The position numbers and the translations under genes were made by a program. This document shows, piece by piece, positions 16,264-64,000 of a stretch of 64,000 nucleotides of DNA. The stretch comes from Chiloscyllium plagiosum (Eukaryota), in contig NC_057718.1 in assembly GCF_004010195.1 (NCBI RefSeq), forward strand, positions 81,416,864 to 81,480,863. Reading direction: 5' to 3'. The notes beneath the pieces are model-generated. The model searched no databases. It was not told where the DNA came from and saw only the letters and a program-made list of their open reading frames with translations. Position 1 is the first letter of the stretch. Each line of letters starts with the position of its first letter.

Positions 16264-17229
16264 GTTCTGTCAGAAGACACCAGAGACACCAATATCCTCC
16301 TTTAACCAACATCTGTCCATAAAATGCACAATAGCAACAAAAATCCATTGTCTCTATGCACTTCAGAATATTATGTGTATCAACGAGTACCTCCTTGAGA
16401 ATTATTACCGATTTACTAGCTCCTGAACCAATTTTTAAAATTAGACTTCTATTCACACTAGCATTTTTGCAGCTGATATGGCTTAATTTGAACCAGGTAT
16501 TTCTTTTCTTAATTTTTTTTATTTAAATAAAAACACTGAAATGTTATGCCTGAAATTAACTTTCAAATATTCCTGAATAATATTCTGGCAACAAATATCA
16601 CTATAAACTAAAATGTTCTCCTGTAGCTATGGACAGGACTTGATATATTGAAAGTTAACAGTTAAACTGAGACAATACGATAGAATCTCATAAAGTGGAG
16701 AACAAGAACTAATTGATAGAAGTCTGTTGTTTTCAAATGTTTTTTTCCTGCTGGTGACAGAACCATCTTAGTGCACCTTAACAAAAGACTGCTTCACATT
16801 GAAGTATTATATTTTAAAATTAACCAGGCAATGTTAGACATTAAGACCTAGTGTAATATCTGGGTTACCACACAACTGAGCTCTCTTTCCCAACTCCTCC
16901 AATGCCCCCCTCCTCCTCCCACTGCCACCACCAAATTTGACTACGCTCCAAAACAAAACTATCTGACTATCTCCCGAAAATCTTCCTTGACTTGACAATC
17001 CGTCCTCTCCTGTCTCAGTAACTACTCTGGACCTAACTGCCCATTCCTAACTGATCTTAGCCCCATCCTGAATGCCAACATGAGTCAACCATACATCCCT
17101 CCTACACTTCTAACCACCTAACTACTCTCCACTGTCTGACTTCCCCTGCCACCCAACCTGCAGCGCTCATTCCACTGCTTTCGAGATTCAGGTTCCATTG
17201 TCTGCCATGCACATGAAATCTTTTGTTTT
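16264..17229 (+). repeat. Left arm (~966 bp) of a long inverted repeat
   Basis: Reverse complement of 20292-21583 once the SINE there is removed; roughly 90% identical by eye. Confidence 0.95.
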
Positions 17230-20291: not shown

Positions 20292-21583
20292 AAAACAAAA
20301 GATTTCATGTGCATGGCAGACGATGGAACCTGAATCTCGAAAGCAGTGAAATGAGCGCTGCAGGTTGGGTGGCAGGGGCAAGTCAGACAGTGGAGAGTAG
20401 TTAGGTGGTTAGAAGTGTGGGAGGGATGTATGGTTGACTCATGTTGGCATTCAGGGTGGGGCTAAGATCAGTTAGGAATGGGTAGTTAGGTCCAGAGTAG
20501 TTACTGAGACAGGAGAGGAGGGGTTATCAAGTCAAGGAAGATTTTCAGGAGATAGTCAGGTAGTTTTGTTTTGGAGCGTCGTCAAATTTGGTGGTGGCGG
20601 TGGGAGGAGGAGGGGGGCATTGGAGGAGTTGGGAAAGAACTGATGGTCATGAGGCATCAGTTGTGTGATAACCCAGACATTACACTAGGTCTTAATGTCT
20701 AACATTGCCTGGTTAATTTTCAAATATAATACTTCAATGTGAAGCAGTCTTTTGTTAAGGTGCACGAAATGGTTCTGTCACCAGCAGGAAAAAAAATTTG
20801 AAAACAACAGACTTCTATCAATTAGTTCTTCTTCTCCACTTTGAGATTCTATCGTATTGTTTCAGTTTAACTGCCAATTTTCAATATATCAAGTCCTGTC
20901 CATAGTTACAGGAGAACATATTAGTTTATAGTGATACTCGTTGCCAGAATATTAGATTAGATTAGTTACAGTGTGGAAGCAACAAGTCCACACTGACCTA
21001 CCGAAGCACAACACACCCAGATCCATTCCCTCACATTTACCCCTTCGCCTAACGCTACGGGCAATTTAGCATGGCCAATTCACCTAACCTGCACGTTTTT
21101 GGACTGTGGGAGGTAACCGGAGCACCCGGAGGAAACCCATGCAGACACGGGGAGAATGTGCAAACTCCACACAGTCAGTCGCCTGAGGTGGGAATTGAAC
21201 CCGGATCTCTGGCGCTGTGAGGCAGCAGTGCTAACCACTGTGCCGCCGTGACACCCTTTATTCAGGGGTGTTTGAAAGTTAATTTCAGGCATAACATTTC
21301 AGTGTTTTTATTTAAATAAAAAAAATTAAGAAAAGAAATACCAGGTTCAAATTAAGCCATATCAGCTGCAAAAATGCTGGAGCGAATAAAAATCTAATTT
21401 TTAAGTGGGCAGAATATTGATTCAGGAGCTGGTAATTCAGAAATAATTCTCAAGGAGGTACTCGCTGATACACATGACATTCTGAAGTGCATAGAGACAA
21501 TGGAGTTTTGTTGCTTTTGTGCATTTTATGGACAGATATTGGTAAAGGAGGATATTGGTGTCTCTGGTGTATTCTGACAGAAC
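20292..21583 (-). repeat. Right arm of the long inverted repeat (contains a SINE insertion)
   Basis: Reverse complement of 16264-17229. Confidence 0.95.
20952..21257 (-). mobile_element. HE1-like SINE present in only one arm of the inverted repeat
   Basis: The empty site ttgccagaata|ttattcagg is preserved (as reverse complement) in the left arm at ~16572-16592. Confidence 0.92.
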
Positions 21584-43500: not shown

Positions 43501-45050
43501 GACACTCAGCGGATGGTTCCTTGATTCTTTGATCATACACATTTTTTATCAAGTGGCATTTTTGACATTTCAGTTTGAACAAAATTTGTGACGCTCAAAC
43601 GATAGCCATGATAGTGACTACAGAATGTGGGCAATTCAAAATAAAAGCAGTTTTACTTTTGATTTTGTAACAGTTATTTGTCATTGGACTTTTGGGAAAG
43701 AAAGGTTGGATATTAAAAATGTGACACGTCTTTAAAAATGTTTCATTGCTAACATTATGATTCCTGACCAAATGTGACAACTTTTTAGAAATTGTGTATG
43801 CCCTTAACCTCAATATTACTATTGTTTGAGTGTCTTAGATATTCAAAGGTAGTTTAAAAAAAAACTTTGTACTGTACATTTTCCTGGCAGTATTATGTAT
43901 TTCTATGGAGTGATTAAATGGGAGTGTCACTAGTAGTTATGTAGTTGACAGGATGAGTCAACTATTTGCAAAGCAAGAGGTAGATCCATGTTGTCTGTAC
44001 CATAACCAATTTATTGCCTAAAAACATGTAAGATAATGTATTTACAGCCATTGTTACAAGTTTATAATGTATTTTTCTATAATCTTGTTTTTGTATGTTA
44101 TATATAACATTCAAGAAATTTTCCTGATAAATTACAAAAATATAGAATATCCAACATTTTGATAACCGATCTATACCAACCCTTTTGCAGTTAGTACTGA
44201 CTGTGATCTTTCTTTTGCTTTCTGTTAGCAACTTGATGACTTAAATAGACAAGTTGGTTTTCTGCTTTTTTTAAATGTGCTTAATTTTATTTAATTGTTT
44301 CTTTGCTGTTTCTATTAACCCTTGCATTATTTTAATAAATGTTATATAAAACTTCTAACACTGGACTGTCTGTTTTAACCATTTTGCCACATTTTCTAGA
44401 ATAAGCATTAAGATTAATGTATGTTGCACGGTTTGTCAGACTAACCTGAGGAAAGTGACCAAATATAACCACTTTAATCCCAGTATGTTGGTTGACAGTG
44501 CCTGTATATGAGTTAACAGTGCCAAACATTTTGGTTGATTGATCTTTTTACCTGTTAAGAAGGCTGCTGTTAGAAAGGAAACAAAAACGTAACACCTCTT
44601 TTCGTATTGTTGGAGTCTTAATAGCTTCCTTCCAGAAACAAGTTTTGCACTAATTTTGAAGTTGTCCATTCAGAGCACTGCACAGCAAAAATGAAAAGAA
44701 AATGCAGGCAATTATTTGTTTGTAGTAATAGTTGTCCAAATTCAAGTAAAACTAGTTTTGATTCATGTAGTTTTAAGAAGTACATATATGCGGAGCCAAC
44801 TCTTCACCGGTCACATCTTGTCATCCAAGTAGTAAGTATTGGATCACCTCTGATAGTTAATATTATATTTTTAACATAATTTATTTGAAAAATAAAGCCT
44901 CTTTTCTCTCAGAATATCTTCTTTTATCAGTTTATTGTGAGATAGAATGTGGAGTTGGAATAGTCTGGTCACCCTGAATTCAGAGTTCCAAAAGTTGTTA
45001 TTGCGTTACATACCACAAAGTCACAAAATAAAGAAACGTCTGTACAGTTA
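40588..45050 (+). other. QKI: QKI-5 3' UTR (end uncertain; AATAAA at ~40841, 41882, 44334, 44892, 45027)
   Basis: AT-rich, no recognisable transposons, follows the stop codon. The true end cannot be fixed without transcript data. Confidence 0.55.
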
Positions 45051-45875
45051 TAGATAACAGTGGATATGTTGAAATGTGGTCAATCACTGGCAGTTGGTGT
45101 TACAGGTTATTATGCTATAACGTGAATTTCATTAACATGAATTTGCTGTAATGCAAATGACAAATTTGGGACACTTTCTAAAGCACAAACCTTTAAAGCT
45201 GTAACGCGATTACATCACCAACACCTAAAGTGCTGTTTCTAAAATGTGATTTTTCTATATTATGAGGTTGCACAAGAATGCAATCATCGTGTTATTGAAA
45301 AATGACCTGTACCTTTATTTCAAGCCTTTGTAAAATTGTAAGTATAAAACAGGCACAGACATTAATAACTGCTTTGCAGTAAATTGTTGCACAACTCAAT
45401 AAGATTGATTTCTTTTACAGACTTTTCTCAAAACTACTTTTACATAGAAATATCATAATGAATTTATCACCTATTCTTTTGTACGTTTTGTCAAGCATTT
45501 GAATTTAACCACAAGCCTAGACAATCCCAAAGTACTTGGCATGCACACTCAAAGGGTTCATGTTATTAGCCTTCACAAGTGGATGTGATATGGATCAGAA
45601 GCATAATACAATGAATACCAGAAGGGTAAAATAGCAACAGAAAATACTAAATCTATACAGTAAGTCAGGCAGTATCTATGTAGACCCAAAACAGTTTCAA
45701 GTGAATGTTCTTTATTTGAACTGGGAATATTTTAACATATGACAGGTTTGAGCAAAAGGGTGGATATGCAAAGGACAAAATAAGGCCGATGATAGGATGA
45801 TTGATTGAACAGTTAGTTTTACAAGACCAAAGGTAATAGTTGTAGGGCAAGAAAAGAGATGCTTAAGCAAAGATG

Positions 45876-46454
45876 AAAATCACGCAACACCAGGTTATAG
45901 TCCAACAGGTTTAATTGGAAGCACACTAGCTTTCGGAGCGTCGCTCCTTCATCAGGTGATGGACTATAAGTAGGATGTTAACCCACCAAACTTGTCCAAG
46001 AGTCTCCATGAATTAACACAGATCTCCTGACCGCTCCTGGAATAAGACAAAAGGAAAATCTTTAAAACAAAAGCTAAACAATTAAACAAAATGTGATTCT
46101 TTTTTGTTTCCTTTGAATATCTTTAAGTGTTAGTCATAAAAATAATGGTAATGTGTTGAGAAAACACTGGGTAAGATTGCTGGATATGAAGAATCCTCCA
46201 GGAATACTTCCAATGAAAATTGTCAAGTTTAGTGATATCAAGTTAATCTCAACACATTAGAAATGCCAGTACTACACTTACAATTTCTCAGTAACATGGA
46301 GAATGATGCTAGTGTAGCTGTTGGACTATAACCTGGTGTTGTGTGATTTTTAACTTTGTACACCCCAGTCCAACACCGGCATCTCCAGATCTTAACCTGG
46401 TGTTGTGTGATTTTTAACTTTGTACACCCCAGTCCAACACCAGCATCTCCAGAT
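45876..46454. mobile_element. Young PLE terminal-repeat insertion: inverted pLTR pieces, captured DNA, 64-bp tandem duplication, 14-bp TSD
   Basis: TSD cttaagcaaagatg at 45862-45875 and 46455-46468. aaaatcacgcaacaccaggttatagtccaacag is inverted relative to ctgttggactataacctggtgttgtgtgatttt. Confidence 0.88.
45924..45958 (-). ncRNA. Minimal hammerhead ribozyme motif (PLE type)
   Basis: CAC-CUGAUGA-A-GGAGC(gac)GCUCC-GAAA-GC-UA-GUG: intact core, 5-bp stem II, palindromic AGCU in place of stem III, 3-bp stem I. Confidence 0.8.
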
Positions 46455-47157
46455 CTTAAGCAAAGATGTGCCTAGAACAAATGTGTTGCATTCTAAAAGC
46501 AAAATAGGACAAAAATTGCAACAAAGAAAAGAAACAAATTTGAAATACTTTATAGTCTGAAGCCTTTGAATTCTATTGAGCCTAGAAGGTGTAAAGTGCC
46601 TAAAAAGAACTATAAGATGCCATTCCTCAAGCTATTGTTGAGTACAGCAAGCTAGGGATAGAGATGTCAGTGTGAGAGCAATGTGGAGAATTAAAACTAT
46701 AGGCCATCATAAGGTCATGTTAACAAACTGATTAGAGGTGCTTTGCAAAATGGTCACCGAGGCTGCGTTTGGTCTCTGCCTATGTCTAGTAGATAACATT
46801 TTGAGCAAAGAATACAATATACTGAATTAAAAGAAGGATCTGTAAATTGCTGCTTTAATTGGGCAGTGAGTTTAGGGCTTGAGATGGTGAGAGATAAAAG
46901 GGATAGATTTTACAACTGCATTTTCATGGAGAAAATCTGTGGGAGGAAAGCAAGCAGATGGTTTGATTGAAGAGTGGGCCAGAGTATCATGGAGGAAGTA
47001 GTTTCTTTGAAATGTTGAAAGTGGAGGGCAAGGTGAGTTAGGTTATGATACTAGAGGTGATGGAAGTAGTGAAAAACAATCTGTTACAAGTTCAGATCAA
47101 AATGATTTTAAACTGCCTAAACAAACTTATCCAAATATTTCAGTGTTGACTACGTTG

Positions 47158-47510
47158 AGCTACACTAGCATCATTCTCCATGTTACTGAGAAATTGTAAG
47201 TGTAGCACTGGCATTTCTAATGTGTTGAGATTAACTTGATATCACTAAACTTGACAATTTTCATTGTAAGTATTCCTGAAGGATTCTTCATATCCAGCAA
47301 TCTTACCCAGTGTTTTCTCAACACATTACCATTATTTTTATGACTAACAATTGAAGATATTCAAAGGAAACAAAAAAGAATCACATTTTGTTTAATTGTT
47401 TAGCTTTTGTTTTAAAGATTTTCCTTTTGTCTTATTCCAGGAGTGGTCAGGAGATCTGTTAATTCATGGAGACTCTTGGACAAGTTTGGTGGGTTAACAT
47501 CCTACTTATA
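47158..47510 (+). repeat. 353-bp genomic segment whose inverted copy lies at 45965-46319
   Basis: Reverse-complement match with a few substitutions and one 2-bp indel. Confidence 0.95.
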
Positions 47511-52473: not shown

Positions 52474-53112
52474 TAGGCTTGTCTCATTGTAATATACTTT
52501 CTCTTCACTTTCTCTTTAAGAACCTTTTATCTAATAAATGTGTAAAGTAACGCACGTAGCTCGTTTCTATATATTTAGGTATCACCTTGGTAGATGTACA
52601 AGATGATCAAATCTGGTTTTTAATGCAGTAATCACGACTTGGTGTTGCAGCTTCATTCTGCATTGTACTATTAGTCAACGCAGATGGATATATATCATTT
52701 GTTGCAGACATGTGGTAATTCTTTGTCGTGATCTCTTCAGAAACTGAGTTGTCATGCTGTGTGACAGGAGGTTAATGATGAGCTGTTCAGATAAGTTGAA
52801 ACAAATAAGAATGCAAGAGAAACTCAGCAGGCTGAGTAGCATCTGTGGAAATAGAAGCAGAATTAACAGTTAGGTATCCTTCTTCAGACCTGAAAGGAGC
52901 TCAAAAATGGTGGCTGTTATGCTGTTGACAAAATGAGAAAGAGGGTTGAGATGAACAAATGGTGGGCTGTCCACAGCAAAAGACAAAGGGAGTTCTAATG
53001 GTGGTAACTAAGAGATTTTGTAAATGATAGGTGTGGAAAGGGGAAAAATGGGTCAGCAAAGCCAACAAGACACAAATAGGACACCAAATAAGCAGGGGTG
53101 AAGAAGGGTAGG

Positions 53113-53240
53113 AGAAAGTGAGGACTGCAGATGCTGGAGACCAGAGTTGAAAAGTGTGGTGCTGGAAAAGTGCAGCAGGTCAGTCAGCATCCGAGGAGCA
53201 GGAAAATCGACGTTTCGGGCATAAGCCTTTCTTCAGGAAG
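53113..53240 (-). mobile_element. PLE terminal fragment with a minimal hammerhead motif (53207-53238)
   Basis: UC-CUGAAGA-A-aGGC(uuau)GCCc-GAAA-CG-UC-GA; same family as 63586-63815. Confidence 0.75.
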
Positions 53241-53504
53241 GGTAGTTTGTCATCCCAGTGGAGGACAGAGGTCAGGCTCTGCTTTAGCTGAACTAAATGT
53301 TGAGTCCCGAAGGCTATAAAATGCCTAAGAGAAGATGAGGTGGTGTTTCCCCAGCTTCCACTGAGCTTTGCTGAAACACAGCTATAGGCCCAGGATGAAA
53401 ATGTTAACATGAAAACAAAATGGTTCATTGAAATGACAAGAAACTGGAAGGTTACGGTCATTCTTACAGACAAGTGGCGGTATTCCACAATCATCTGGTC
53501 TGCA

Positions 53505-63044: not shown

Positions 63045-64000
63045 GAGTCATGGGACGTGGTGAGTGCATGACCATCACGAAGGAGAAGCTGCTACAGAGG
63101 CTAAAATGTCTGAAAGTGGATAAACTACCCAGACTGGATAAACTACACCCCATGGTTCTGAAGGAGAGAGCCGAAGCAATTGTGGAGGCATTGGTGGTGA
63201 TCTTTAAGAATAACTGGAGTCAGGGAGGGTCCCAAAAGAATAAAAATTGGCTGATGTTTGTGAAGGGAGGGAGGCAGAAGATTATAGGCTGGTTAGCCTA
63301 ATCTTTGTTGGTAAGCATTTAGAGTCCATTATTAAGGATGACATTACAGAGTGCTTGAATTTGTATGGTAAAATGCAGCTGAGTCAGCATGGCTTCACTA
63401 AGGAGAGGTCCCGCCTGTTAAAATTCTTTGAGGAGGTAATGAGCAAGTTAGACAAAGGAGAGCCAGTAGACATGACCTATTTGAATTTCCAGAAGACCTT
63501 TGACAAGGTGCTGTACAGGTGACAGCTAAAATGAGATAAGAGCCCATGGTGTAAATGGCAAGGTATTGGCATGGATAGAGGATTAAGAGAAAGTGAGGAC
63601 TGCAGATGCTGGAGATCAGAATTGAAAGTGTGGTGCTGGAAAAGCACAGCAGGTCAGACAGCATCTGAGGATCAGGAGAATCAATGTTTCAGGCATAAGC
63701 CCTTCATCATCAATCAGGAAGCCCATTCCTGATGAAGGGCTTATGCCTGAAATGTCGATTCTCCTGTTTCTTGGATGCTGCCTGACCTGCTGTGCTTTTC
63801 CAGCACCACACTGTGACTTGGCAGAAGACCAGAAAGTGGGGATAAAGGGGTCTTTTTCACAATGGCAGCTGGTGTCTAGTGCAATGCAGAGGTCCATAGT
63901 GGGACCACTACTGTTCACATTATATGTTAATGATGTAGGTAAAGAAACTGAGGGTATTAATCAATTTGCAGATGGTAGGTGGTGTGACAGATCGTGTTGT
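63045..64000 (+). mobile_element. Degraded CR1 RT fragment interrupted by a PLE-derived hairpin element
   Basis: LKVDKLPRLDKLHPMVLKE and YLNFQKTFDKV motifs. Confidence 0.82.
63586..63815. mobile_element. PLE-derived palindromic element (~83-bp arms) with a hammerhead motif at 63727-63758 (+)
   Basis: Arms 63627-63708 and 63730-63812; UC-CUGAUGA-A-GGGC(uuau)GCCU-GAAA-UG-UC-GA. Confidence 0.82.

Follow-up and report, generated by a model that had tools for sequence, protein, structure and literature searches.

How did 355 bp of neighbouring chromosomal DNA come to lie, inverted, between the two arms of a Penelope-type insertion? The question arises at 45862-46468 of the window (the whole 64-kb stretch of DNA analysed), downstream of a + strand gene that we take to be QKI from its peptide motifs, read by eye; the QKI exon tested had no Pfam match. 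No ORF was found in this copy of a Penelope-like element (PLE). It is bounded by an exact 14-bp direct repeat, CTTAAGCAAAGATG, on the + strand at 45862-45875 and 46455-46468, the two copies found by a scan of the 64 kb. If a one-base gap is allowed, this target-site duplication (TSD) possibly spans 18-19 bp (45857-45875 against 46451-46468). Its final 8 bases equal the continuation of the Penelope-type terminal repeat (pLTR) at 6 of 8 positions.

Between the TSDs, the left pLTR arm (45876-45960, - strand) is antisense on the + strand and has no tail. It is followed by a sense-strand pLTR stub of 9-10 nt (45960-45969, + strand), whose last 5 nt are common to the next piece, the filler (45965-46319, - strand). 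By sequence match, the filler is an inverted copy of 47158-47510 (+ strand), a donor segment that starts 689 bases beyond the right TSD. The right pLTR arm (46318-46392, + strand) is sense, carries a tail of 30-37 nt and has its first 2 nt in common with the filler. The two arms are inverted and 93% complementary over 41 nt (45868-45908 against 46318-46358). Last comes a tandem copy, 64 bp long, of 46329-46392 (46393-46456, + strand), the units differing at one base. Filler and donor are 97.7% identical (E 3e-174), with six substitutions (46033, 46124, 46127, 46198, 46210 and 46271) and one 2-bp indel, the extra two bases being in the filler at 46016-17. An earlier note on this DNA had described this architecture, and all its coordinates hold on re-measurement: the 14-bp TSDs, the antisense and sense pLTR pieces with the 64-bp re-copy (reproduced by self-comparison of the sequence), the 355 bp as reverse complement of 47158-47510, and the donor about 0.7 kb past the right TSD.

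We assessed whether the arms belong to a Penelope-type element. A minimal type I hammerhead is predicted in the left arm at 45924-45958 on the - strand with all core nucleotides present, in keeping with the intact hammerhead that the earlier note had placed there. It parses into a 3-bp helix I, an extra A after position 9, a 5-bp helix II and a palindromic AGCU helix III, and cleavage would be expected after 45927. The extra base between 9 and 10.1, together with G10.1-C11.1, is among the features listed for metazoan Penelope-like elements in the accessible text of PMC4209133. According to the same text, Schistosoma motifs have helices I and II longer than the 3 and 5 bp here, and minimal motifs require a dimer and are weak in vitro; the insertion carries one motif only. 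Rfam gave 0 matches at gathering thresholds in the 64-kb window and 5 chance-level matches in 45700-46700. The fold was not recovered by single-strand folding (z -0.9 and -1.8), as expected because the motif is minimal. A non-LTR retrozyme was considered and rejected, there being one hammerhead here and none in the 64-bp tandem.

The remaining evidence comes from the family to which the arms belong. Four of the 24 available runs were aligned, including three DNA runs, with 69,453, 74,971 and 78,520 records on 44900-47150, and the RNA run X21. Summed depth of the DNA-run contigs, which we do not equate with copy number, was 5.9-8.0 million in the bin 45888-45963 and 3-8 million across the pLTR bins; the listed family contigs align up to 45954-45962. 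The pLTR is a very high-copy family. Its copies terminate at either of two places, 46354/46357 and 46387/46391, which lie 30-37 nt from each other. Of these ends, the left arm reaches only the inner and the right arm the outer one, and this extension of one arm accounts for the one-sided tail of PLEs, a tail of 30-40 bp at one end only being a PLE insertion feature in the available part of PMC8557442. Two initiation sites are reported in vitro (PMC11167929) and correspond to the two family 3' ends here. Inverted 5'-truncated arms, seen as joints between opposite arms, are common in the family, so the earlier note's remark that inverted pLTRs are usual for PLE insertions describes the norm in the DNA-run contigs. 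The hammerhead, the inverted truncated copy, the one-sided tail and the TSD together support the assignment of the insertion as a Penelope-type terminal repeat stub.

Two marine metagenome contigs may connect the pLTR to coding sequence. The hammerhead pattern matched 2 metagenome loci (L001 and L002), 0 viral and 0 prokaryote-genome loci, and a 24-nt pLTR pattern matched 0 metagenome loci. The hammerheads of L001 and L002 are identical to that of the window at 34 of 36 nt, and the two contigs have a PLE-like unit in common (L001 1-1050, L002 1-1470). L001 holds a reverse transcriptase (RT) fragment, inverted relative to the pLTR, with a Pfam RVT_1 match below cut-off (E 1.5e-5); its NCBIfam matches, at E about 0.03, were taken as noise. 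Inspection by eye gave CX4CxxC and GIY-YIG-like motifs in L002, where the end of the GIY-YIG-like ORF is followed by the pLTR and then by a 109-bp inverted repeat. The L002 ORF had no Pfam or NCBIfam match, and a PDB search returned nothing useful. Through these loci, with the hammerhead alone in common, the pLTR would be linked indirectly to an ORF with RT and GIY-YIG.

Separately, family reads of the RNA run X21 on the - strand have loose poly(T) ends before 45895 and 45898 (471 and 401 reads), with AATAAA just upstream in the family. These ends suggest that a poly(A) site in the pLTR is in use, strand or priming artefacts being possible. The putative position is the base at which the 9-nt sense stub ends, which may be coincidence.

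The junctions constrain how the pieces were joined. Neighbouring pieces overlap by 5 nt (TATAA), 2 nt (CT) and 3 nt (TAA), as the earlier note had reported for all three; TAA corresponds to TSD bases 3-5 rather than to the start that had been proposed. The antisense arm tracks the family to about 45960, and family RNA reads then diverge (behind 45958/45960). The same 10-mer stands on both sides of the filler, as the stub at 45960-45969 and at the start of the right arm, where it is preceded by 4 further pLTR bases, 2 of them common to the donor. In other family copies, antisense-sense joints at 45908-45960 have no filler (among the joints listed, 15 of 833), and some family joints hold short runs of letters which, by eye, are partly re-copied pLTR (12 of 604 runs listed). 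Both 64-bp units end in target-like letters, and family letters differ behind 46387 and 46391. Because the units include target letters, we consider the tandem to be a DNA-level re-copy of a finished junction. Serial microhomology-guided switching is the simplest account of the several template switches that had been suggested, with the exception that the 64-bp tandem is DNA-level and not necessarily an RNA switch.

The reading that we prefer, at a probability of roughly 60%, is that, during the joining of the two arms, a growing strand switched template to chromosomal DNA nearby, by a left-strand or a right fold-back route. The element endonuclease would make a staggered cut, and each 3' end would prime cDNA on pLTR RNA. 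The left end would begin at the inner start site, aided by the 6/8 match between target and pLTR, and the right end at the outer site; the difference in start site would leave the one-sided tail. The left strand would then pair briefly with the right cDNA and copy 9 nt, slip via the 5-nt match to the donor top strand at 47510, copy 355 nt of donor back toward the break, and be joined to the right cDNA end via 2 nt. Slippage at the 3-nt match, then or later, would re-copy 64 bp over the finished right junction. Alternatively, the right end could fold back on its own resected strand and give the same product. Folding back would offer an easier template, but a 2-nt primer over about 0.8 kb. The left-strand path is favoured because it leaves the distant jump to the longer match and accounts for the 9-nt stub with a single strand; it is weakened in that the donor top strand is the strand removed by resection, and sequence alone cannot separate the two routes.

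Arms of this kind are what priming from both ends would yield: read on the strand that grows out of its own cut, each is complementary to pLTR RNA. Purified Anolis PLE protein cuts and extends both strands (PMC11167929), and we infer priming from both ends in vivo. The in vitro priming of a Poseidon element without target homology (PMC11167929) weakens the suggestion that homology helped. That capture and insertion were a single event is indicated by the position of the filler, exactly at the inversion joint and within an intact TSD, and by the right arm, which appears to retain 4 pLTR bases that a finished simple joint would lose. The other family joints, which lack filler and in some cases hold short re-copied runs, point the same way, as do L1 precedents for templated insertion. 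The preferred reading is weakened by the dimensions of the capture, since 355 bp from a distance of 689 bp exceeds the published L1 and yeast cases.

Age provides a further test. In three organisms (A, B and C), the flank contigs end inside the pLTR on both sides, overlapping it by 28, 8 and 27 letters on the left and by 27, 32 and 27 letters on the right (A, B and C, respectively); one of these six contigs reaches the 31-letter bridging rule. No empty site was seen among the flank contigs of A, B and C, none of which reaches the opposite flank. The flanks differ by 43/1644 (2.6%) between A and B and by 3.8% between A and C. Because the pLTR outer junctions occur in all three organisms and no empty site was seen, the insertion most likely predates the A-B and A-C splits, and the description of the event as recent in the earlier note was not borne out. 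At the shark pedigree mutation rate of 7x10^-10 per generation, given for one species in the accessible text of PMC10587355, 6/353 substitutions would mean millions of generations.

It is conceivable, though rather improbable, that the filler arose in a second event: an inverted pLTR stub was inserted first, and a break or stalled fork at its palindrome was later repaired by template switching. At the A-C flank rate, 13.4 filler-donor substitutions would be expected in 353 bp, and at the A-B flank rate 9.2, against the 6 observed (Poisson P 0.021 and 0.19, respectively). The shortfall against A-C fits a later event and weakens the case for a single one, although the C segment is also unusually close: the A donor and the C segment are only 3-7 substitutions apart, which indicates a low local rate and makes the timing compatible with one event, without proving it. 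From the filler, the C segment differs by 7 substitutions, the B segment by 12 and the A donor by 6. Filler, window donor and C segment thus appear about equidistant, compatible with filler and insertion being of one age. Position 46271 reads G in the window donor and B, and A in the filler and C, so that on the simplest readings the filler would be older than the A-B split, which counts against a later event. B and C lack the 2-bp deletion of A's donor, and therefore the deletion arose on that donor.

Further points for two events are the 10-mer on both sides of the filler, which resembles a secondary duplication, and another local inverted duplication of ~1 kb in the window, without TSD, which suggests that such events may need no PLE. 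Moreover, no contig crosses either filler junction in any run, B and C included, among the contigs listed, a listing that leaves out 222,729 records; this also weakens the single-event reading and leaves the presence of the filler outside the window indirect. Two events would, however, have to explain the extra pLTR bases of the right arm by chance (~1 in 256 for 4 nt) or by a further switch onto the left arm.

We regard as unlikely the proposal that the element's RT jumped from pLTR RNA to a nascent read-through transcript of QKI, of which it reverse transcribed 355 nt. The polarity is suitable, as the left strand needs a + strand template, which is QKI sense, and read-through template jumps are proposed for rotifer PLEs in the available part of PMC3846280. 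No transcript over the donor was shown, however, and the 9-nt stub and the 64-bp tandem need DNA templates, so DNA-directed switching took place here anyway. The RNA run X21 (about 2/100 of the run) has depth in 8 of 30 bins, all on repeats, and none in the filler or in 44900-45127; this is a shallow sample and gives no evidence either way on read-through. In a + strand read-through RNA, filler and donor are predicted to form 349 pairs (-595.5 kcal/mol by folding). The hairpin is only a thermodynamic prediction, to be expected of any such inverted repeat, and an effect on QKI is speculative. AATAAA at 45027 is unreliable as an end marker of QKI, as a base differs in organism B. Inside the filler, the inversion has placed ATTAAA on the QKI sense strand at 46081-46086. 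Past the QKI 3' region but short of the insertion, at 45128-45355, depth of up to 16,348 indicates an element that is moderately repeated.

The chance that the filler is an assembly artefact is slight. The lack of a short-read contig over the junctions, among the contigs listed, is what speaks for it, against copies that differ from their donor at 7 places and ordered junction microhomologies. Three donor alleles also recur in organisms B and C, and three filler alleles occur in the donor contig of X1. This contig has the window-donor state at 3 substitutions and the indel and the filler state at the other 3, as if the assembler had merged two copies; mixed alleles are expected of merged copies, and we count them toward a single event. 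X1 may be the source of the window, and would then check the assembly rather than the population.

That the 355 bp belong to the interior of the element or to some other multicopy repeat, a reading with no supporting point, is largely refuted and has almost no probability left: filler bins have flank-like depth (15-87 in the three DNA runs) against 3-8 million on pLTR bins, one long contig in each DNA run (3/3) carries the segment in donor context, and the 64-kb window has no third match to it. The donor is at its native place in all three organisms. These observations support the filler as a local, non-repetitive segment outside the pLTR family, and they agree with the earlier note, which had set a multicopy or PLE-internal filler as the finding that would overturn its account.

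We compared the insertion, read as a template switch during joining, with published systems. In the accessible texts of PMC8557442 and PMC3846280, and in PMC11167929, endonuclease-positive PLE units are alike in their inverted 5'-truncated pLTRs, a tail at one end, a TSD, the pLTR hammerhead and two preferred 3' ends; the insertion here differs in that it lacks an ORF and contains 355 bp of local host DNA where the inverted arms meet. In the rotifer Adineta vaga (PMC3846280), unrelated host sequence also sits within a TSD, flanked by pLTRs. The rotifer cargo is an NRPS gene, which has two pLTRs in direct orientation around it and was relocated, with no local donor named in the available part of the paper, whereas here the cargo is inverted, the donor is 0.7 kb away and the arms are opposite. 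Trans-mobilisation of the Adineta type was therefore rejected, the cargo lying between opposite arms and coming from the adjacent flank.

L1 offers parallels in joining. As far as the available text goes, twin priming likewise joins two cut-end cDNAs by microhomology (10.1101/2024.08.27.596794), and templated insertions copy nearby genomic DNA into the insertion with junction microhomology. In a set of 3,598, the same preprint counts 22 templated insertions, whose templates as a rule measure <250 bp and come from no more than 15 bp away, and the accessible part of PMC11702581 has 3 insertions with nearby genomic DNA. Both sources concern another retroelement class and somatic or cell-line events, and the 355 bp from 689 bp away lie outside the L1 norm of size and distance. 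Pol theta stem-loop insertions (most 5-34 bp, in the accessible text of PMC11292364) and yeast fold-back inversions (2 to about 150 bp, in that of PMC11724301) share the inverted flank copy, the short microhomologies and the geometry of the right-end fold-back. They are short and primed beside the break, whereas here 355 bp, a ~0.8-kb loop and a 2-nt primer are involved; the 2-nt overlap has no imperfect extension. Because the capture is longer and more distant than either, we do not file it under the L1 or fold-back classes. No description of local DNA captured in inverted form where the arms of a PLE meet was found in the literature searched, most subscription papers being outside its scope. 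The event is a variant of published insertion-associated templating.

How a Penelope insertion is completed has yet to be validated (PMC11167929). The filler, lying at the joint, implies that the two halves were separate extendable ends, able to search about 1 kb of flank, and so supports two-ended priming followed by end joining. As a single case, it is an old repair-type scar whose function is not evident. Wider interest would follow only if local captures prove to be a regular class with the template fixed. It is doubtful that local capture is a regular Penelope outcome in this genome, arising by RT jumps to nascent host RNA or a transcription-displaced strand and seeding heritable inverted duplications near genes throughout the genome.

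Two further structures were observed in the window. The other local inverted duplication (16264-17229 and 20292-21583, ~1 kb) lies in a QKI intron, with 913 matches and 48 mismatches between its copies; a SINE at about 20955-21257 interrupts the second copy. No direct repeat of at least 7 bp was found at the ends of the copies, and the duplication may represent a repeat family. Another PLE-like family with a hammerhead is present at 53109-53242 and 63584-63812, as a solo stub flanked by a 9-bp repeat and as an inverted pair. The left arm of the pair bears the tail, and ~15 central nt look pLTR-derived.
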